Positions 1 through 48,274 of a stretch of 64,000 nucleotides of DNA are shown piece after piece. Below the pieces are notes generated by a model. It worked only from the letters and a program-made list of their open reading frames with translations, had not been told where the DNA came from and searched no databases. This DNA comes from Ignavibacteriota bacterium (GTDB lineage: Bacteria > Bacteroidota > Ignavibacteria > UBA10030 > UBA6906). The stretch lies in NCBI GenBank assembly GCA_016707525.1, contig JADJHP010000003.1, positions 76,677-140,676 on the forward strand, given 5' to 3'. The position numbers and the translations under genes are program-made. Each line of letters begins with the position of its first letter. The first letter of the stretch is position 1.

Positions 1-164
1 AGTCCGGCTTTGCTGAGCCGCTGGAGAACCTTCGCGAGGAGGTCGTAAGGAATGCCGTAGCGGTCGGAGATCTCCTTCGCGGTCACAAGGTCACCCCCCG
101 ACCGCGCAGCGATATCGCGGATGGCGATGAGCCCATATTCTACTCGTTTTGAGAGTCTGACCAT
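1..164 (-). CDS. Rrf2-family (IscR/NsrR-like) transcriptional regulator, 5' part only; gene runs off the left edge of the window
   Basis: Minus-strand ATG at 164-162 opens a frame reading MVRLSKRVEYGLIAIRDIAARSGGDLVTAKEISDRYGIPYDLLAKVLQRLSKAG, the winged-helix N-terminus typical of Rrf2 regulators. Absent from the ORF track because no stop lies in the window. Confidence 0.7.
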   Translation of the reverse strand, partial: MVRLSKRVEYGLIAIRDIAARSGGDLVTAKEISDRYGIPYDLLAKVLQRLSKAG

Positions 165-223: not shown

Positions 224-337
224 TGTACCATAATAACAGCGGAACGGGCATATTCGTTCCGAAACCATCAAAAGATAATGGTTTTCATCGTATTTTTCAA
301 TACCCCATCGACGGGGCGGTGGCCCGGGGGGCCCCCA

Positions 338-357
338 GGGCGGTGCATGCACCGCCC
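338..357. repeat. 20-nt perfect palindrome GGGCGGTGCATGCACCGCCC (REP-like element, copy 1)
   Basis: Read directly; self-complementary. Lies 11 nt downstream of the hydrolase stop. A half-copy GGGGCGGTG sits at 313-321. Confidence 0.9.
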
Positions 358-367
358 CCAATCCTGC

Positions 368-1144
368 CTATTTGAAGGTCTCGGTAAAGAGCGCCTTCAT
401 ACGATCGAACGAACGGGCATCGGCAGAAGCATTGTAAGCGGCTCCTTTGGAAGGATCGTCGCCGGCACCCTTTTGACTGAACGCGTGAACCGCCCCCCCG
501 TATGCTGTGAATTCCCAATCCACATGGGCGTCACGCATTTCCTTCTGAAACGCCTCCACCGCCGGGCCCGGAACGTACGGATCGTCGGCACCGTGCAAAA
601 CCAGAACCCTCCCCTTGATCTGTTTCGCATCGTCGGGGTTCGGGGTATCGAGGTTCCCGTGGAAGCTGATCACGCCACGCACCTGAGCGCCGCTGCGGGC
701 AAGTTCAAGGACAGTGCCGCCGCCAAAGCAGTACCCGATCGCCGCAACCCTCTGCGCATCCACTCTCTTGTTCGCTGTGAGCTGATCAAGTGCCGCCTGT
801 GCCCGGGCACGCAAGAGCGGACGATCGCCCCGGTAGATGCCTGCCTGCTTTGAAGCCTCCTGCACATTCACCGGCCGGACGCCCTGCCCATAGATGTCGG
901 CCACGAACGCGACATAGCCCATCTCCGCAACCTGCCGCGCACGCATCTGCACGTACTCGCCGACACCCATCCAGTCGTGCACCAAAACCACACCGGGGCG
1001 CGGCCCCTTCAGCGCAGGGTCATAGGCAATGAACCCCTCAAGGACGGTATCGCCGTGTTTGTAGGTCACCTTCTCCATTTTCACTTCACTGAAGGAAGGC
1101 ACGGCAATGAGGACTGCGAGCAGGGCGAGAATGAAGCTCTTCAT
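368..1144 (-). CDS. Secreted dienelactone hydrolase family protein
   Basis: ORF 368..1252 trimmed to the internal ATG at 1144 (MKSFILALLAVLIAVPSFS signal-like N-terminus). Contains VLVHDWMG, GYCFGG nucleophile-elbow and HGADD motifs typical of DLH alpha/beta hydrolases. Confidence 0.85.
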   Translation of the reverse strand: MKSFILALLAVLIAVPSFSEVKMEKVTYKHGDTVLEGFIAYDPALKGPRPGVVLVHDWMGVGEYVQMRARQVAEMGYVAFVADIYGQGVRPVNVQEASKQAGIYRGDRPLLRARAQAALDQLTANKRVDAQRVAAIGYCFGGGTVLELARSGAQVRGVISFHGNLDTPNPDDAKQIKGRVLVLHGADDPYVPGPAVEAFQKEMRDAHVDWEFTAYGGAVHAFSQKGAGDDPSKGAAYNASADARSFDRMKALFTETFK

Positions 1145-1166
1145 AGGAACTCCCGGTTGGTGTGTG

Positions 1167-1187
1167 GGGCACGATGCATGCACCGCC
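1167..1187. repeat. Degenerate copy of the GGGCGGTGCATGCACCGCCC palindrome
   Basis: GGGGCACGATGCATGCACCGCC shares the right arm and centre with the 338..357 element. Another decayed copy (GGGGCG..N16..CGCCCCTACAA) lies at about 1234..1270. Confidence 0.5.
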
Positions 1188-1304
1188 ATTAGAACCGCGT
1201 GGGACGGACAGAGGTTCCCGCGAGACCTAAACGCGCGGGGGCGATCCCACAAGCAGGACCGCCCCTACAAGATCTGGCCACGGCATCATCGGATACCTGT
1301 GTAC

Positions 1305-1430
1305 GGGCGGTGCATGCACCGCCCTACAAACCTCGATCGGCGTACCGGGATCCGCAGCCCCTGAGGGCGGTGCACCGCCCCTACACAACCCCTCCACGAT
1401 CGGCGTGACCCGGGATCCGGGAACCTGCCC
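1305..1430. repeat. Two tandem ~60-nt units, each starting with the GC-rich palindrome (GGGCGGTGCA[TG]CACCGCCC) followed by (C)TACA(C)AACC..CGATCGGCGT(G)ACC(C)GGGATCCG
   Basis: Unit A at 1305..1364 and unit B at 1365..~1430 align by eye with a few indels. Unit B overlaps the last ~16 codons and the stop codon of hemL. Confidence 0.85.
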
Positions 1431-2748
1431 CCCAGATCCCCACGACAGAACCTCTTTCGCCGCGTCCGACCGTTCCGACGTCCTCACCGCTGCGGTCGAT
1501 GTCCGCGTCCGAATGCGCGATGGACATGAACCCGGCCTCGAACTGCGACGGCGCAAGGTTGATCCCCCGCTCAAGCATCCCGCGGAAGAACGCGCCGAAC
1601 TTCGCACGGTCTGCGACCGCGGCCGTGGTGTAGTCCGTCACCGGCCCCTTCGTAAAGAATGTGGTGAACATCGCGCCGACACGGTTCTGTACGAGCGGAT
1701 ATCTCCCATCGTCAAGGACCTTCTGCATGCCGCTGGCGAGGCGTGCGGACTTCGCCTCGAGCCGCGTATAGAATGCCGCATCTTCCTGGATGATCGAGAG
1801 CGTCTCGAACCCTGCAGCCATCGCCAGCGGGTTGCCTGACAACGTGCCGGCCTGATACATGGGTCCGGCCGGAGCCACCATCGACATGATATCCTTTCGC
1901 CCGCCGTACGCACCCACCGGCAATCCTCCGCCGATGATCTTGCCGAGCGTCGTCAGGTCGGGTGTGATCGCATACAGCTCTTGAGCCCCGCCGCGGGCGA
2001 CACGGAAGCCCGTCATCACTTCATCGAAAATGAGCAGGATCCCTTCCTTCGTGCAGATCGTCCTGAGGCCCTCGAGGAACCCTGGCTGCGGGGGGACGCA
2101 TCCCATGTTCCCCACGACGGGCTCGACGATGATGGCCGCTACCGCGCCGCGGTTCGCATCCACCAGTGCCTGCACGGACGGCAGACTATTATATGCTGCC
2201 GTGAGGGTGCCATTGGCAACGCCCGCCGGCACACCGGGGCTGTCCGGCACCCCCAGCGTCATTGCGCCGGAGCCTGCCTTGATCAGGAACGCATCGCCGT
2301 GGCCATGATAACACCCTTCGAACTTGATGATCTTCTCCCGACCGGTGAACGCGCGGGCAAGCCGGATCGCGCTCATTGTCGCTTCCGTGCCGGAATTCAC
2401 CATGCGCACCATCTCGATCGACGGTACGATGCTGATGATGAGTTCCGCCATGCGGATCTCCAGCTCGGTGGGTGCGCCGTAGCTGGTCCCCTCCAGGGCG
2501 GCCTTCCGCACCGCATCGATCACGCGGGGGTGGGCATGGCCGAGGATCATGGGCCCCCAGGAGCCGACATAGTCGATGTACTCGTTCCCATCCACATCGG
2601 TGATGCGTGAACCGGCAGCCTTCGCAATGAAGAGCGGGTTGCGGCCCACCGATGCGAATGCGCGCACGGGGGAATTGACGCCACCGGGGATCACCATCTT
2701 CGCCCGGCCGAACAGCGCGTCGGAGGTCTTCGTGGTCATGGAGGTCAT
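1381..2748 (-). CDS. hemL: Glutamate-1-semialdehyde 2,1-aminomutase
   Basis: 455 aa. Has [12 protein letters not shown], class-III aminotransferase body and the [11 protein letters not shown] region. The C-terminal ~35 aa are atypical (Gly/Arg-rich) and partly repeat-encoded. Confidence 0.93.
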
Positions 2749-3737: not shown

Positions 3738-3790
3738 GATCGGTCTCCATAAACTCGTTTGAAGTTCCCATGACAATGCAATGCAGATAT

Positions 3791-3814
3791 CAGATATCTG
3801 AATTCAGATATCTG
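3791..3814. repeat. 24-nt perfect AT-rich palindrome CAGATATCTGAATTCAGATATCTG in the hemY-hemB spacer
   Basis: Read directly. An extra CAGATAT half-site lies at 3784..3790. It sits between the hemY stop (3817) and the hemB start (3737). Confidence 0.85.
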
Positions 3815-3816
3815 AA

Positions 3817-8982: not shown

Positions 8983-10255
8983 GTGATTCGTTCTTTGTCA
9001 GGCCGAACAATTCACGGAGCACTTTGATGCGCTGCAGCGTATCAGGCCCGTGGCTTCCGTTCTCCGCCCCTTGCTTCAGCGTCGTCAACGGTTGGTGCAG
9101 GATCTTGTTCACGATGCGTTTCGTGAGCATCTCCACCAGCTCGCGGTCCTCAGGCGTGAACCTGTTGATATTCTTGTGCACTTCCTCGGCACGGATCGCT
9201 TCGAGGGTGGTACGGAAATCCTGGATCGTGGGTGCGACCTGCAGCGACTTGTGCCACCGGAGGAACTCCGCCATCTCCTCGCGCACGATGCGCGTGACCG
9301 CGGGCATTTCCGCCGTCCGCTTCTGCAGGTTCCGGTCCACGATCGCGCTGAGCGCGTCGATGTCGTACAGGAACACGTTCTCGATGCGACGTGCGGCCGG
9401 GTCGACGTTGCGCGGCACGCCGATGTCAATGATGAAGAGCGGGTTGTTCCCGCGGCGGCGCATCACCTTCTGGACATCCTCCGGCCCGACGACGTAGGTC
9501 GGGCTGTTCACGGACGTGATGACGATGTCCGCGACGCGGAGCCCCTCCGCCATCTGCTCGTAGTCCACCACTTCGCCGCCGAGTTCGGCGACAAGCGCCT
9601 CGGCGCGGGCACGGGTCCTGTTAGCAACACGGACGGTCCCGATCCCCTTCCCTACCATGTGCTTCAGTGTCAGCTCGCCCGTCTCGCCGGCACCGATCAG
9701 CAGGACCGACTTCCGGGAGAGGTCGGCGAAGATCTTGCTGGCAAGTTCCACGGCCGCATAGCTCACCGACACCGCGCCCTCGCAGATCGACGTCTCGGTG
9801 CGGACCCGTTTCCCCACATGCAGGCTTGCCTGCATGAGCCGGTTCATCACGGGGCCCAGGGCGCCGGCATCGCGCGCGAGCTGGAACGCTTCCTTGACCT
9901 GATTCAGGATCTGGATATCGCCGATGACCATCGAATCGACGCCCGCCGCCACCTTGTAGAGGTGGTTCAGCACGGCACCGTCACGCCATGCGGTGAAATG
10001 CTCGGGGCGCACGGATCCATCGGCATGCTTGAGGTCGAGGAGCGTGGCGATCACATCGGTGTGATGGAGAGAGGCGTCGCGCGGGACACCATACAGCTCC
10101 GTGCGGTTGCAGGTGGAGACCAGCATGCACTCGTCAAAGAACCGTTCCTTCAACAGCGTCACAGCCTGCCGGGCTTCGTCGGTCGAGAGCCACATCCGTT
10201 CACGCACTTCCACCGCGGCGGTGTGGTGACTGATACCGATGGAAAAGAGATTCAT
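8972..10255 (-). CDS. hemA: Glutamyl-tRNA reductase
   Basis: 427 aa with VSTCNRTELY active-site motif and the LIGAGETG NADPH-binding motif. Confidence 0.95.
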   Translation of the reverse strand: MNLFSIGISHHTAAVEVRERMWLSTDEARQAVTLLKERFFDECMLVSTCNRTELYGVPRDASLHHTDVIATLLDLKHADGSVRPEHFTAWRDGAVLNHLYKVAAGVDSMVIGDIQILNQVKEAFQLARDAGALGPVMNRLMQASLHVGKRVRTETSICEGAVSVSYAAVELASKIFADLSRKSVLLIGAGETGELTLKHMVGKGIGTVRVANRTRARAEALVAELGGEVVDYEQMAEGLRVADIVITSVNSPTYVVGPEDVQKVMRRRGNNPLFIIDIGVPRNVDPAARRIENVFLYDIDALSAIVDRNLQKRTAEMPAVTRIVREEMAEFLRWHKSLQVAPTIQDFRTTLEAIRAEEVHKNINRFTPEDRELVEMLTKRIVNKILHQPLTTLKQGAENGSHGPDTLQRIKVLRELFGLTKNESHGD

Positions 10256-13079: not shown

Positions 13080-14654
13080 TTACATGGAAAGGCTAAAACT
13101 GCCGGGTCCCCCGACCACGGTCAGCATCGGCTCGAACATCGCATTCGCTTCCTGGCACTCCACGACCACCTGCGCAAACCGCGTGAAGCGGCCGGCAGGG
13201 ACCTCGAAGGCGGCTTTCAGGATAGGCTTCCAGTCCTCGGATGACCCGCTGCCCAGGCCCACCATCGACTCGACCGTATGGGTGTCCGATGCACCGGCAA
13301 GCCGCTGCAGGATCGATTCCGCAAGTTTCTTTTCGCGATTGAGAAGGCGTTCCAGCGTCTTGATATCCGTCTTCCTGGTGGCCGCGGAGACGCGCGCCCG
13401 TTCGGAGTCGTGCCGCCCTCCCCGCGACGGCGATGTCTCTGCGGGAAGCATCCGCTGGACATGGGCATCGAGGACGAAGGCATGCACGCGCCACGTGCTG
13501 AGCGTGGAAAGCCCGACCAGGATCTCGAACAATGCATCGCGCCGGAGATCGACGCGGCGCAGAAGATCGTTCCGGCCGAACACCACGGTGCCCGGTTCAG
13601 CGGGAAGGACGAGTGACCGCAGCCGCAGCGTATTCACCAGGGATTCGTGAACGTTGCGGTGTCTGATGGATTCCTGCTTGCCCAGAAGCAACATGCCTGT
13701 CCTGCTCACACTTGCTTCCTGGTTCTTCAGCGTGCTGAGGAAGAACCTCATGCCGGCATGATCGAAGGCAAAGATCTCGCTGCCGCGCTCCACACCGTCG
13801 ACGCCGACGCCGAAGGCGTGCGGGGATGGCGTATCCTGCAGAGAGATCAACCCGGCCGCAAGAACGAAGGCGGTCTGCTCATCGAATGCAATGCGCACAC
13901 GCACTGACGGCGTATGCAGCGGCGATGGGGGATCGGGGACGTATGGCTCAGCCGGTGCGGGCGCAGGCGCAGGCTGATGCGGCGGAACGAACGGCGCCGG
14001 TGCTTCCACCGGAATTCGGGGCGCAGCAACCTGAGAAACCGCGGGCCGCTTCGGTTCGGGAACAGATGATGGTGGCACCGGTGGGGTGACCGGTACAGGC
14101 CGGGAGAGTTCAACCGGCGGATGCGGAACAGCTACAGGACGTGACGCCTCAACCGGTGGTTTCGGAACAGCGAGGGCGGAGGCCTCAACCGGCGGTTTCG
14201 GAAAGCGACGAGGACGTGACGCCTCAACCGGTGGTTTCGGAACGGCCACAGGCCGTACCTGTGGCGCCGCTGGATCGGAAGCCTCGATGCGCCGGGGTGT
14301 TGGAGCCACGACCGACGTGGGAGCGTCGGGGGTGACCTCCGGAACAGGCCGCGGAGCCGGCGGTGCAGAAGCAGGGACAGGAATTTCGGGAACCGGAAAA
14401 GGCTTCCGCAGCGGCTCCTCTTTCAGCGGGGGCGGAGGAGGTGTAGAAAACAGCGCGGGCTTCTGGTGGACCGGCGGAGGAGGCGGAGCGGCGCCTTCCG
14501 CGGCAAGTCGTTCCACTTCGCCGACCATCCTGCGGACGACCGCATCAGCTTCCTCTGCCGGCACCCCACCGAGGGATGTGCGGAGGGCAGAGCTCCTGGC
14601 AAGTGCTCCCAGGAGTTCACCGAGGAGTGCGGCACCCATGATGTCTTTCATCAC
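13080..14654 (-). CDS. GvpL/GvpF-family domain protein with N-terminal helix and long Pro-rich repeat linker
   Basis: The C-terminal ~260 aa follow the GvpF/GvpL pattern as I recall it: conserved H..V.E...... LP.(R)FGTVV block, W-V-x-F-V block and AAF.VP....F.Q.V block. The N-terminal half is proline-rich with PKPPVEAS repeats. Identified by eye, not by HMM. Confidence 0.6.
   Translation of the reverse strand: MMKDIMGAALLGELLGALARSSALRTSLGGVPAEEADAVVRRMVGEVERLAAEGAAPPPPPVHQKPALFSTPPPPPLKEEPLRKPFPVPEIPVPASAPPAPRPVPEVTPDAPTSVVAPTPRRIEASDPAAPQVRPVAVPKPPVEASRPRRFPKPPVEASALAVPKPPVEASRPVAVPHPPVELSRPVPVTPPVPPSSVPEPKRPAVSQVAAPRIPVEAPAPFVPPHQPAPAPAPAEPYVPDPPSPLHTPSVRVRIAFDEQTAFVLAAGLISLQDTPSPHAFGVGVDGVERGSEIFAFDHAGMRFFLSTLKNQEASVSRTGMLLLGKQESIRHRNVHESLVNTLRLRSLVLPAEPGTVVFGRNDLLRRVDLRRDALFEILVGLSTLSTWRVHAFVLDAHVQRMLPAETSPSRGGRHDSERARVSAATRKTDIKTLERLLNREKKLAESILQRLAGASDTHTVESMVGLGSGSSEDWKPILKAAFEVPAGRFTRFAQVVVECQEANAMFEPMLTVVGGPGSFSLSM
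14104..14243. repeat. Imperfect 36-39-nt tandem repeats (core GCCTCAACCGG[T/C]GGTTTCGGAA) inside the GvpL/F-like gene
   Basis: Near-identical copies at 14137..14168 and 14212..14243, a variant at 14176..14204 and a degenerate copy at 14104..14129. They encode PKPPVEAS(RPxxx) repeats on the minus strand. Confidence 0.85.
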
Positions 14655-20039: not shown

Positions 20040-22793
20040 CTACCGCGAGAGGAGAAGCGTTCCGTACTTCTCAACGATACTCCGGACCTCCTCGAGGCGG
20101 ATCGGCTTGCTCAGGAAATCATCCATGCCGGATGCCATGCACGCCTCACGGTCGTTCGCCATGACATTGGCTGTCAGGGCGACGATCTGGGGTCTGTCAT
20201 CCCCGGTGTAGCGCTCCCGGATGATCCGGGTGGCGCGGAGGCCGTCCATGACGGGCATCTGGACGTCCATGAAGATCAGGTCATACTGTTGCCGTTCAAG
20301 AGCATCGATGGCTTCCTGGCCGTCGGCGGCCACATCCGCACGATACCCCATCTTGCGCAGGATCGCGAGGGCCAGGGCCTGATTCACGGGATTGTCCTCC
20401 GCGACCAGGATCCGCAGCGGCAGCCGCAGCGCCAGCGTTTTGTCCAGGACCGTGCTGCCCACCGCACGTATCTGCTGGGGGGGGCCGCCGGGTGCCAGAC
20501 GGATGGCCTTCAGGATCTGCGCAGGCTTCACCGGCTTGAGGGTTTGACCGGCGAAGAGTCCGACAACGTCCTCGCGCACCATGCCCGCTCCCGTAGCCAT
20601 GAGGACCATGGGCAACGAAGCTCCGGTCGCGAGGGTGCGGACATGGCGTGCAAACTCGATCCCGGACATCTGAGGCATGACCGCATCAACCAGGAGAACG
20701 TCCACATGCCCCCCGGCGGCCAGCGTAGCCAGAGCCCGGGCAGGATCCGTGAATGCACGGACGCGCATCCCTTCCGATTCGCACACCCGTTGCAGCAACG
20801 CTGTCACGGTCGTATTGTCATCCACGATCATGATATCGGTCGGACCAGCAGGCCTCTTCCCGTCAGCCTTCTCTTTCGGCGCCACCGCGGCGACCGGAAC
20901 GCACAGAGCGAAGAAGAATGTCGCACCCAGCCCCTCCGTGCTTTCTACCCAGATGCGCCCCTCCATCAGTTCCACCAGGCGCTTGGATATCGCCAGGCCG
21001 AGCCCCGTGCCACCATATTTACGATTCACGGAACGGTCGGCCTGCGAAAACGGCTGGAACAACCGGTGCCTCGCGGACTCGGCGATGCCAATGCCTGTAT
21101 CCTTCACGCTGACGAGGAGTTCAACCCGATCACCATCGGTCAACCGGCCCACGGCATTGACCGCAACCTCCCCCTGTTGCGTGAACTTGACGGCATTGCC
21201 GACGAGATTCGCGAGTACCTGACGGACACGGGAGGCATCGCCCATCAGGACCTCGGGAACCGTTGGGTCCACGGACCCGATCAATTCGATGTTCTTTTCT
21301 GCGGCTTTCCCTGCGAAGAGATCGAGCACCTCTTCGATGCAGGAGTGAAGAGAGAAGGGCTCCCGCTCAAGGTCGATCCGTCCCGATTCCACTTTCGAGA
21401 AATCCAGGATCTCATTCAGGATCCCCAGGAGCGATTCCCCGCTGTTCCGGATGGTCTCGGCATATTCGCGCTGCTCTTCGGTGAGCCCGGTCTCAAGGAG
21501 CAGACTGGTCATGCCGATGACGCCATTCATCGGCGTGCGGATCTCATGGCTCATGGCAGCGAGAAAACTCGCCTTCGCTCTCCCTGCTTCCTCCGCCTCG
21601 TCTTTCGCAAGGCGCAGCTGTTCCGCATAGAGCCGGAGTTCCTCTTCGGACTGCTTTCGCTCCGTGATGTCCTGCATCGTCGAGCGAATACCGATCACGT
21701 TCCCTGCACTGTCCAGCTGTACACGGTCCTCGACAAGGACCGGCACTTCCGAACCATTGCTCCTGCGGAACACCCGCTCATACGGCTCCTTGGGAGCGGC
21801 CTCACCGTTCATCTTGCGGGCGACCGCCTTGCGGGAGGTCTCCGGGTCGGCAAGAAAATCCCACACCGGACGGCCGAGCATCTCTTCTTCGGAATATCCG
21901 AGCATGGCCTGCTCGGTCCGGTTCACACGCGTGAAGATACCGTTCCTGTCGATCTCATGGTACCCCACCGGTGCATCGTCGTACAGGTCGCGGAACCTCT
22001 GTTCGCTTGCCCGCACGGCTTCCTCCGCCTCCCGGTCTTCGGTGATGTCCCGGAAGATACCGAAGGCCCCGGCAAGGACGCCGCGCCCGTCGAATTGAGG
22101 TGTTGCGGTAACGAGGAGTGTCCGGTGCTTGCTGTCCGGACGGCGGATCATGATGTTGTACGTGCTGCGGATGCCGGTCCCGCGGATGCGGGTCTGTTCC
22201 CGGATGGACGCGAACACCTCCGGCGTGGTGAACTCACCGATGCACCGCCCCTTCAACGTCCCCTCTTCTACACCGAAGATCGTCTCCGCTGCCGGATTCA
22301 CGAACGTGAACCGCTCGTCGAGATCGACGAAGACGATCCCCTCCCCGGTATTCTCGATCAGCGTGCGGTACAGCTCTTCGCTGGCCCGGAGTTTCTGTTC
22401 CGCGTGATGGCGGTACAGTGCCATCTCCACCGTCGTAGCAAGCTCGCGTTCATCGAACGGCTTCAGGACGTAGCCGAACGGACCGATCTGCTTCGCCCGA
22501 TGGAGGGTCTCCTTATCCGAATACGACGTCACAAAGATGACCGGCACATCGACCTCGGCCCGGATCTTCTCCGCGGCGGTGATGCCGTCGTACTCACCGT
22601 CCATCCCGATATCCATCAGCAACAGGTCGGGCCGATGCTCTATCGCTGCATGATAGGCATCCACCCCGCTGCCGACCACAGCAACGACTGAGCAGCCAAG
22701 CGCGAGCATGCGCTTCCGCAGATCGGCAGCGACGATGCGTTCGTCGTCGGCAATGATGACCCGGGCATTCTCGGGTGTCATGAGACCATTCAT
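20040..22793 (-). CDS. Hybrid sensor histidine kinase: REC-PAS-PAS-HisKA-HATPase-REC-REC
   Basis: 917 aa. N-terminal receiver (DLLLMDIGM), two PAS-like segments, H-box SHEIRTPMNGVIGM, N/G boxes, and two C-terminal receivers (the last has DLIFMDVQMPVMDG). Confidence 0.9.
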   Translation of the reverse strand: MNGLMTPENARVIIADDERIVAADLRKRMLALGCSVVAVVGSGVDAYHAAIEHRPDLLLMDIGMDGEYDGITAAEKIRAEVDVPVIFVTSYSDKETLHRAKQIGPFGYVLKPFDERELATTVEMALYRHHAEQKLRASEELYRTLIENTGEGIVFVDLDERFTFVNPAAETIFGVEEGTLKGRCIGEFTTPEVFASIREQTRIRGTGIRSTYNIMIRRPDSKHRTLLVTATPQFDGRGVLAGAFGIFRDITEDREAEEAVRASEQRFRDLYDDAPVGYHEIDRNGIFTRVNRTEQAMLGYSEEEMLGRPVWDFLADPETSRKAVARKMNGEAAPKEPYERVFRRSNGSEVPVLVEDRVQLDSAGNVIGIRSTMQDITERKQSEEELRLYAEQLRLAKDEAEEAGRAKASFLAAMSHEIRTPMNGVIGMTSLLLETGLTEEQREYAETIRNSGESLLGILNEILDFSKVESGRIDLEREPFSLHSCIEEVLDLFAGKAAEKNIELIGSVDPTVPEVLMGDASRVRQVLANLVGNAVKFTQQGEVAVNAVGRLTDGDRVELLVSVKDTGIGIAESARHRLFQPFSQADRSVNRKYGGTGLGLAISKRLVELMEGRIWVESTEGLGATFFFALCVPVAAVAPKEKADGKRPAGPTDIMIVDDNTTVTALLQRVCESEGMRVRAFTDPARALATLAAGGHVDVLLVDAVMPQMSGIEFARHVRTLATGASLPMVLMATGAGMVREDVVGLFAGQTLKPVKPAQILKAIRLAPGGPPQQIRAVGSTVLDKTLALRLPLRILVAEDNPVNQALALAILRKMGYRADVAADGQEAIDALERQQYDLIFMDVQMPVMDGLRATRIIRERYTGDDRPQIVALTANVMANDREACMASGMDDFLSKPIRLEEVRSIVEKYGTLLLSR

Positions 22794-34542: not shown

Positions 34543-38943
<4,401 letters not shown>

Positions 38944-47496: not shown

Positions 47497-48237
47497 GTGG
47501 TCGTTTCCTTTCACATGGACCACATGAACAGCGATCTGTATACCCTCATCGGCACTGCCGCATCACTCGGTTTCATCCACACCCTTGTCGGGCCGGATCA
47601 CTATGTGCCGTTCGTCGCTATGGCCCGCGCGGGCAAATGGAGCCGGCTCAAGACGTTGTACGTGACGGTACTCTCCGGCCTCGGCCATGTAGGGAGTTCC
47701 ATCCTCCTCGGAGCGGTCGGGATCGCATTGGGCAGTGCACTGTCGCATCTTGAGTGGGTCGAATCGATACGCGGTGAGGTTGCGGCATGGATGCTGACCG
47801 GCTTCGGACTGGCATACATGGTCTGGGGGATCTGGCACGGGATCCGCTCCCGCCCGCATTCCCATGCACACGCCCATGCAGATGGCGCGGTGCACGAGCA
47901 CACGCACACGCATCACTCAGCGCACGCGCATCCCCATGAACACGGCAAGCCCGCGAACCTGACGCCCTGGATCATCTTCAGCATCTTTGTCTTCGGCCCG
48001 TGCGAGCCGCTGATCCCGTTGCTCATGTATCCCGCGGCCATCCACTCGTCGCTCGGCGTGGCCCTCGTTGCGACGGTCTTCGCCCTTACAACGATCGCAA
48101 CGATGCTCGGCATGGTCTTCCTCGGATTGGCCGGCGTCGAACTGATCCCCTTCCCCCGCCTCGAACGCTACATCCACGCCATGGCAGGCGGGATCATTGC
48201 CATGTCGGGGCTGAGCGTGCTCTTTCTTGGCCTCTAA
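47497..48237 (+). CDS. His-rich NicO/RcnA-like metal (Ni/Co) transporter
   Basis: 246 aa; the start may be the ATG at 47515 or 47524. Six TM helices, GFIHTLVGPDH motif, and a central His-rich loop HSHAHAHADGAVHEHTHTHHSAHAHPHEH. Confidence 0.65.
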   Translation: MVVSFHMDHMNSDLYTLIGTAASLGFIHTLVGPDHYVPFVAMARAGKWSRLKTLYVTVLSGLGHVGSSILLGAVGIALGSALSHLEWVESIRGEVAAWMLTGFGLAYMVWGIWHGIRSRPHSHAHAHADGAVHEHTHTHHSAHAHPHEHGKPANLTPWIIFSIFVFGPCEPLIPLLMYPAAIHSSLGVALVATVFALTTIATMLGMVFLGLAGVELIPFPRLERYIHAMAGGIIAMSGLSVLFLGL

Positions 48238-48274
48238 GAATTAAGAACTAAGAATTCTTAGTTCTTAATTCTTA
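48235..48274. terminator. 40-nt perfect AT-rich palindrome between convergent genes (bidirectional terminator candidate / six-frame stop element)
   Basis: TAAGAATTAAGAACTAAGAA|TTCTTAGTTCTTAATTCTTA. Three TAAGAAN heptads and their inverted complement. The outer TAA triplets are the stop codons of the two flanking genes. Confidence 0.7.

Follow-up and report, generated by a model that had tools for sequence, protein, structure and literature searches.

A probable GTAG-tagged REP family with BIME-like clusters around a dienelactone hydrolase gene of an uncultured Bacteroidota lineage

Repetitive extragenic palindromic (REP) families often comprise more than 100 dispersed copies per genome. GTAG REPs have stems of 6–13 bp and occur as dimers and as clusters reiterated with flanking DNA; a 2013 survey recorded them in Proteobacteria, Cyanobacteria, Chloroflexi and the PVC group, and found only CGTC repeats in Bacteroidetes (Di Nocera et al. 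2013, PMC3733652). Group 3 TnpA-REP acts on small perfect palindromes next to GTAG, which is needed for cleavage, and the REPs of Escherichia coli are palindromes of imperfect symmetry whose bulge is needed for function (PMC8266576). Here we analyze the G+C-rich palindromes on both sides of a dienelactone hydrolase (DLH) gene in a 64,000-nt stretch from an Ignavibacteriota bacterium (contig JADJHP010000003.1, positions 76,677 to 140,676; hereafter the window, 61.6% G+C). One cluster lies between hemL and DLH, and a second, partly deleted one between DLH and an Rrf2-family gene. The palindromes have defined sequences and tags, and in a syntenic relative they are dispersed and biased toward intergenic DNA. 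They probably constitute a GTAG-tagged REP family of an uncultured 'Bacteroidota bacterium' lineage, arranged at this locus in clusters resembling bacterial interspersed mosaic elements (BIMEs) and presumably seeded by a REP-associated tyrosine transposase (RAYT).

Tagged palindromes and their linkers

Exact searches of the window placed the perfect 20-nt palindrome GGGCGGTGCATGCACCGCCC at 338-357 and 1305-1324 and a 16-nt form, GGGCGGTGCACCGCCC, at 1365-1380, exactly as the first-pass annotation had them. The chance expectation of GGGCGGTGCATGCACCGCCC is 0.01 with up to three mismatches, and none of 100 shuffles yielded two or more matches; for GGGCGGTGCACCGCCC, about 0.12 matches are expected in shuffled sequence. 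The gapped pattern GGGCGGT..ACCGCCC matched three times in the window versus none expected, and neither a hairpin list nor a half-site search revealed a further copy elsewhere in the window. All genes around the palindromes lie on the minus strand, and on this gene-sense strand a 5' GTAG precedes three of the window copies. From hemL to DLH, the minus-strand order is linker B, GTAG-GGGCGGTGCACCGCCC, linker A, GTA-GGGCGGTGCATGCACCGCCC, 36 nt and GTAG-GGGCGGTCCTGCTTGTGGGATCGCCCC, from which a degenerate TAAT-GGCGGTGCATGCATCGTGCCCC is separated by about 50 nt. Past the DLH stop codon, 10 nt are followed by the 20-mer, a GC-rich filler and the right half-site CACCGCCCC.

Comparison of copies between loci revealed that the dispersed unit is (T)GTAG next to a perfect, G+C-rich hairpin, whose opposite side frequently bears the complementary CTAC; in many copies the pair GTAG...CTAC lengthens the palindrome to 28 nt. 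The family includes at least two hairpin subtypes, namely T1, GGGCGGTG-CATG-CACCGCCC, and T2, GGGCGGTCCCGC-AA-GCGGGACCGCCC, the latter with the consensus GTAG-GGGCGGTCCCGCAAGCGGGACCGCCC and a hairpin of 26-28 nt. GTGG, GTAT and TTGG occur as variants of the tag. The window copy at 1234..1270, which had been taken for a decayed relative of the 20-mer, does exist, but it represents subtype T2 (1238-1268) rather than a worn T1 and has intact T2 counterparts in relatives; three of its sense-strand stem positions are G-T/G-U wobble pairs.

In a family-wide alignment, conservation spans TGTAG through the hairpin and stops there, the flanks being unrelated between loci. This boundary bears on whether the palindromes derive from another mobile element, either a miniature inverted-repeat or palindrome-associated transposable element (MITE or PATE) descended from the IS200/IS605 insertion sequences, or attC-like sites that would make the hydrolase gene an integron-type cassette. 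Palindromic doublets of about 100 nt do stand on either side of one gene, and the ends of IS200/IS605 elements likewise have subterminal hairpins and a 5' guide tetranucleotide (PMC8266576). However, the left and right ends are not conserved, terminal inverted repeats and target duplications are absent, and reading the spacer sequences revealed no GTTRRRY core. Moreover, no integrase or transposase was noticed among the annotated neighbors (no systematic integrase scan of the window's open reading frames (ORFs) was made), searches of the window and the fetched loci for Y1 transposases were negative, and the hemL-DLH-Rrf2 synteny is stable across relatives of 84% to 100% identity. Such an origin is thus extremely unlikely. 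The MITE-like nature raised in the first-pass annotation is rejected, since nothing beyond the tag and hairpin is conserved and the linker is restricted to this locus, and an attC/integron cassette is rejected on anatomy.

The two tandem units of about 60 nt noticed at the outset were confirmed as unit A (1305-1364) and unit B (1365-1434), each consisting of a REP and a linker. Their common tail is a linker of about 56 nt, GTACAGGGGGCATACGGTTTCCGGATCCCGGGTCACGCCGATCGTAGGTTTTGTAG, which is common to both DLH-flanking spacers (seen in loci L125, L150 and L153; loci are cited by number). All palindromes lie in the two spacers, as had been claimed, but the tail of unit B runs inside the 3' end of the hemL ORF as read in the window. 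The window carries in succession linker, short T1, linker, T1, T2 and decayed copy, with the 56-nt linker conserved in relatives, which is the mosaic pattern of a BIME. Outside the hemL-DLH-Rrf2 locus, including all loci fetched from the relative BIN5 described below, the linker was not found; given that it is shared by both DLH spacers, the ~60-nt units are local reiterations of REP plus linker. A CRISPR array was rejected because its 'spacers' would be copies of one linker (cas genes were not searched for). As single-stranded DNA, T1-linker-T1 folds into one long hairpin (-40.9 kcal/mol, z = -7.4); the doublet was not classified as a REPIN (a REP doublet forming a hairpin), its linker being confined to this locus.

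Dispersal, intergenic bias and turnover between strains

A search of 185,579 species genomes with the 20-mer returned at least 120 loci, which fall into three classes: arrays in Solirubrobacterales, terminators with A- and T-runs, and copies flanked by GTAG and/or CTAC, as in the window, in BIN5 and a few Chloroflexi. The metagenome-assembled genome (MAG) 'Bacteroidota bacterium BIN5' (GCA_030835135.1, JAUQWO01, 62-64% G+C) is related to the window organism and syntenic with it. On contig JAUQWO010000071 the gene order is hemA-C-D-E-H-Y-B-L-DLH, with DLH 84% and HemL 93% identical to those of the window. Among the matches listed, BIN5 has at least 10 exact 20-mers on at least eight contigs, situated at many unrelated loci, including between divergent genes, and nearly every copy has GTAG/CTAC beside it. 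The 8-kb blocks around these matches also contain about 10 variant copies, including intact T2 copies, GTAG-GGGCGGTCCCGCAAGCGGGACCGCCC-CTAC; the copies seen in BIN5 are therefore at least 10 exact and about 10 variant, on at least 8-9 contigs. Its doublets have a different linker in each case.

The copies are biased toward intergenic DNA. When genes were called with a crude model, 11.5% of the lineage DNA was intergenic, and this fraction contained 21 of 25 heads; of the remaining four, three lie in ORFs over-extended upstream of the true start, and the fourth is a chance head match without a hairpin. Together with the GTAG/CTAC tag, the spread over at least eight BIN5 contigs and the clusters of REP plus linker, this bears out the REP/BIME-like assignment of the first-pass annotation. 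That annotation had also allowed for the motif being absent elsewhere in the genome, which, for the lineage, the exact copies in BIN5 contradict. A duplication confined to the surroundings of the hydrolase gene, not backed by any family across the genome, would account for window copies lying entirely in two spacers 1 kb apart and for a 56-nt linker found only there. Nevertheless, it is very unlikely, being already contradicted for the lineage by the identical tagged palindrome in the unrelated contexts of BIN5, and the assemblies of the window species break at the repeat.

Specifically, all seven short-read contigs of the window species that reach the locus (at least 98% HemL or 93-99% DLH identity) end inside the cluster, and in BIN5 the repeat lies within 150 nt of a contig end in five of ten loci among the matches listed. 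Contig breaks of this kind are expected of a multi-copy repeat, and the family accounts for the short-read assembly breaks at the locus in this wastewater lineage. The same failure of assemblers at repeats, evident in every short-read contig here, might suggest that mis-joined or collapsed repeats created the tandem units and the odd hemL end of the window, which differs from conspecific contigs by indels and an extension. We give such an artefact next to no credence: palindromes, tags and linker are present in many independent assemblies (ENA, Logan, JGI, NCBI), and it could change how many copies the window shows but not whether the family exists.

Comparison of near relatives revealed that copies are gained, lost and decayed between closely related strains. 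In the DLH-Rrf2 spacer of L125 (DLH 99% identical), two T1 copies stand on either side of a 56-nt linker. The window retains one of them, the first, in full, then 17 nt of filler and one half of the other, and L127/L128 (93%) have the first T1 and a decayed second element. In the hemL-DLH spacer, BIN5 possesses a single T2 copy in 114 nt. L154 (HemL 96%) has there a T1-like copy whose tags are GCAG/CTGC and a decayed proximal one, and at least three to four copies occur both in L153 (98%) and in the window. The other copy initially described as decayed, at about 1167..1187, is indeed degenerate; it spans 1165-1190 and occupies the orthologous position of an intact GTAG-T2 in BIN5 (L126, ~9948-9978). 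This variability makes the locus a strain-variable marker for typing.

Between the DLH-Rrf2 cluster and the Rrf2-family gene, we also observed an inverted repeat, AAAACCATTATCTTTTGATGGTTT, upstream of that gene (window ~260-285, minus strand; L125 975-1000; equivalents in L127 and L154). It is kept in all strains while the adjoining REPs vary, overlaps a sigma-70-like promoter match (300-272) and is a candidate operator of the Rrf2 regulator.

Transcript ends, proposed mechanism and the hemL terminus

Every copy in the window is oriented with transcription and sits where the hem operon or the hydrolase gene ends. Given this placement, they probably act as stable RNA stem-loops, which would shield the 3' ends of upstream mRNA or attenuate read-through and would not be terminators of the classical type. 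The RNA folding asked of the cluster in the first-pass annotation gave a positive answer: the whole-cluster RNA folds better than shuffles (z = -3.4). The terminator role proposed there, taken in its classical sense, does not hold, as no T-run follows any copy; we rejected intrinsic terminators because no terminator-like site falls on any copy, those in 1-1700 lying elsewhere. Rfam returned no family, its sole weak match being NLPC-P60 (E = 0.58, far below its threshold).

These features could also be read as the origin of the palindromes, that is, as RNA stem-loops selected at gene ends (3' protectors, attenuators or unusual terminators) whose similarity stems from local duplication and convergence instead of spread by a transposase. 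In line with this, the sense orientation at transcription-unit ends is uniform, the linker is local, several variants hold their pairing by sense-strand G-U wobble, and the same 20-mer serves as an A-run/T-run terminator, a single hairpin between such runs, in unrelated genomes (L001, L087, L092; L091). The wobble pairs are suggestive of selection on the sense-strand RNA, but the advantage is inconsistent: only 7 of 12 variant copies have a better fold in the sense RNA than in the antisense RNA. Furthermore, besides the missing T-runs, GTAG/CTAC is unneeded for a protective hairpin yet is the best-conserved flank, and identical 20-mers stand at many unrelated BIN5 loci, including between divergent genes. 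We consider this origin unlikely; as a function it is compatible with an exapted REP and competes with a REP family for the origin only.

For the REP family we propose the following model. A RAYT (TnpA-REP, a Y1 HUH transposase) encoded elsewhere would seed copies by single-strand cleavage and joining, with the hairpin and GTAG as its putative recognition elements; in its tag, short loop and perfect 8-bp stem, the unit matches what group 3 TnpA-REP takes as substrates. Clusters would then be expanded and deleted by slippage during replication or by recombination among the copies. Finally, the host may tolerate the copies or use them as mRNA-end hairpins.

Several observations weigh against this model. 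Within the window, the family is confined to the two spacers about 1 kb apart. The local linker indicates that clusters grew here by local duplication, not by transposition of the whole doublet, and the preference for sense folding in 7 of 12 variants belongs on the same side. In L154 (3160-3260), GCAG and CTGC replace GTAG and CTAC on both sides of a copy; this paired change keeps a 32-nt palindrome, and such drift fits selection for pairing as well as selection for the tag. Most directly, a cognate RAYT, anticipated in the first-pass annotation, was found neither in the window nor in about 1.17 Mb of fetched loci, which amount to a small part of any genome of the lineage, and no other Y1 transposase was found there. 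The search combined a motif regular expression over six frames with phmmer, using an approximate E. coli YafM sequence and a RAYT-like protein from L091 as queries, against stop-to-stop frames of at least 80 aa (window and earlier loci) or at least 60 aa (metagenome loci L129-L149).

The RAYT-like gene of L091, accompanied by its own REP, served as the positive control of this search. Located at 1887-2656 in a 43% G+C Bacteroidia MAG, it forms a typical REPtron, with the motifs HLHLL ... YIHYNP and flanking TCCTCGCC-nnn-GGCGAGGA hairpins. It lies 1 kb from an exact 20-mer and was rejected as the cognate RAYT, for it has its own different REP and that 20-mer is a hairpin beside tRNA-Asn.

The hemL 3' end is remodeled by the REP cluster. 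In relatives, hemL ends canonically at 428 aa with the stop TGA. In the conspecific contigs L150-L152, HemL ends ...TIQASKDVLATVV and the stop TAG comes from the GTAG of a T1 copy, giving 429 aa with the last 12 residues different. In the window, the native stop is lost, and 27 added codons run through linker B to the TAG of the next GTAG, the head of unit B (stop codon 1381-1383). There are thus three distinct hemL 3' ends among near-identical strains, each at a REP junction (loci compared include L150 6080-6125 and L153 2200-2250). Compared with L153, the window hemL end shows an 18-nt insertion and +1/+2 indels (minus strand, 1381-1520), and these differences may partly be assembly error. 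Similarly, the DLH stop TAG of BIN5 lies within a GTAG head, TTCAG-GTAG-GGGCGGCC... (L126 10774-10833). The bracketing of the hydrolase gene itself looks incidental, these being the two sizeable spacers at operon boundaries. For annotation, the spacers are to be labeled REP clusters, not regulatory sites of the hydrolase gene, and the 455-aa HemL is to be read as having a REP-remodeled 3' end. The features are collected in Table 1.

Table 1. Palindromic elements, linkers and genes at the left end of the window
Feature	Position	Strand	Description
T1 REP	338..357	-	20-nt perfect palindrome, 8-bp stem with CATG loop when single-stranded; tag degenerate (TTGG); lies 10 nt past the DLH stop codon
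Second-T1 remnant	313..337	-	GGGGCGGTG and GC-rich filler; right half-site CACCGCCCC on the minus strand
Degenerate REP	1165..1190	-	minus strand TAAT-GGCGGTGCATGCATCGTGCCCC; separated from the DLH start codon by 21 nt
T2 REP with GTAG head	1238..1268	-	GTAG-GGGCGGTCCTGCTTGTGGGATCGCCCC on the minus strand
T1 REP, tandem unit A	1305..1327	-	20-mer at 1305-1324; GTAG head shares the first G of the palindrome
Linker A	1325..1364	-	shortened form of the ~56-nt linker between REPs
Short T1 variant, tandem unit B	1365..1384	-	16-mer at 1365-1380, GTAG head at 1381-1384
Linker B	1381..1434	-	second copy of the ~56-nt linker, read as the final codons of the extended hemL frame
Rrf2-family regulator gene	N-terminus at 3-164	-	
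DLH gene	368..1144	-	Pfam DLH, 2.9e-45; context, outside the repeat
hemL, glutamate-1-semialdehyde aminomutase	1381..2748	-	context; 455 aa versus 428-429 aa in relatives

Beyond hemL come the genes for hemB and protoporphyrinogen oxidase, and their 40-nt spacer holds an A+T-rich perfect 26-nt palindrome, TCAGATATCTGAATTCAGATATCTGA (3790-3815), which could serve as an operator or form a hairpin inside the hem operon. Three other kinds of repeat were observed in the window. An A+T-rich perfect 40-nt palindrome, TAAGAATTAAGAACTAAGAATTCTTAGTTCTTAATTCTTA, lies at 48235-48274 between two convergent ORFs (genome G+C 62%); the stretch 14097-14246, inside the long ORF at 13080-14654, consists of four 36-39-nt repeats in tandem (AGGACGTGACGCCTCAACCGGTGGTTTCGGAACAGC-like); and direct repeats at 21170-21566 and 35703-36099, 72-76% identical and exactly 14,533 nt apart in long ORFs, are probably paralogous gene segments.

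Recurrence of the core and comparison with known systems

A metagenome search for exact matches to GTAG plus the 20-mer returned 21 loci in several unrelated backgrounds; viral contigs had no match to the repeat. The backgrounds that share the identical tagged core number at least four or five, and each has a conserved flank of its own. The core is present in Dehalococcoidia (L016, L132, L133, L141) and Anaerolineae (L115, L118, L146). In an organism of 65% G+C (Ga0209642 contigs, L130-L139), the core forms the apex of a ~70-nt hairpin, GGGGGCAGGnGGC...GTAC-T1-CTAC-CCCCGCCCTCCTGCCCCC. In contigs of 38-43% G+C (L135, L140, L143-L145), the tagged palindrome, itself 80% G+C, lies about 35 nt upstream of a start codon and is followed by a conserved A+T-rich tail (L135 4477-4540, L140 1058-1130, L143-L145). 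The core GTAG-GGGCGGTGCATGCACCGCCC(-CTAC), 24-28 nt long, might represent a REP/RAYT-type system that moved between phyla or an unusually constrained recognition module, an explanation that we regard as doubtful. If true, it would be at odds with the prevailing view that REP-RAYT pairs are specific to a lineage and inherited vertically, and the family holds new biology only if this cross-phylum identity reflects transfer. Coincidence among the very many G+C-rich GTAG-tagged palindromes is plausible, because enormous databases, more than 600 Gb of sequence, were matched exactly and the sequence space of such palindromes is limited.

The Solirubrobacterales matches were rejected as members of the same family, as the 20-mer there is one of very many array palindromes and lacks the GTAG tag. 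In these MAGs (L003-L120), we observed dense head-to-tail arrays of varied perfect 20-24-nt palindromes, always with a GCATGC or ACATGT center and with G+C-rich arms that vary from unit to unit. The arrays occupy many loci per genome, for example L006 3700-3800, L012 1650-1800 and L051 3750-3900.

Among described systems, REPINs (Bertels and Rainey 2011, PMC3116915) are likewise formed by two REPs and a short spacer that yield a long single-strand hairpin. Unlike the present doublet, which together with its linker is found only in the two DLH-flanking spacers, a REPIN replicates genome-wide as a unit. The REP/BIME system of E. coli shares the mosaic of palindromic units and conserved linkers in intergenic spacers at operon ends, and in both cases mRNA 3'-end protection and attenuation have been proposed. 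In contrast to E. coli BIMEs, the palindromes here are perfect and the linker is locus-specific, and neither an alternation of Y/Z orientation nor sites for IHF or gyrase can be demonstrated.

The closest resemblance is to the GTAG REPs. The present family shares with them GTAG beside a perfect hairpin that is short and G+C-rich, with a stem of 8 bp and a loop of 3-4 nt, the coexistence of several hairpin subtypes within a genome, an extragenic location mostly downstream of genes, and the occurrence as singles, as dimers with inward tags and as clusters reiterated with flanking DNA. It differs from those of the 2013 survey in that many copies are tagged on both sides (28 nt), no RAYT was found in the searched DNA, and the host is filed under Bacteroidota. 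As the survey found only CGTC repeats in Bacteroidetes, a GTAG-type REP in this lineage is a modest extension of the known host range. In form, the nearest counterparts are found in Stenotrophomonas maltophilia, whose small REPs with perfect palindromes (SMAG, GTAG families 6-9) are processed by group 3 TnpA-REP (PMC8266576).

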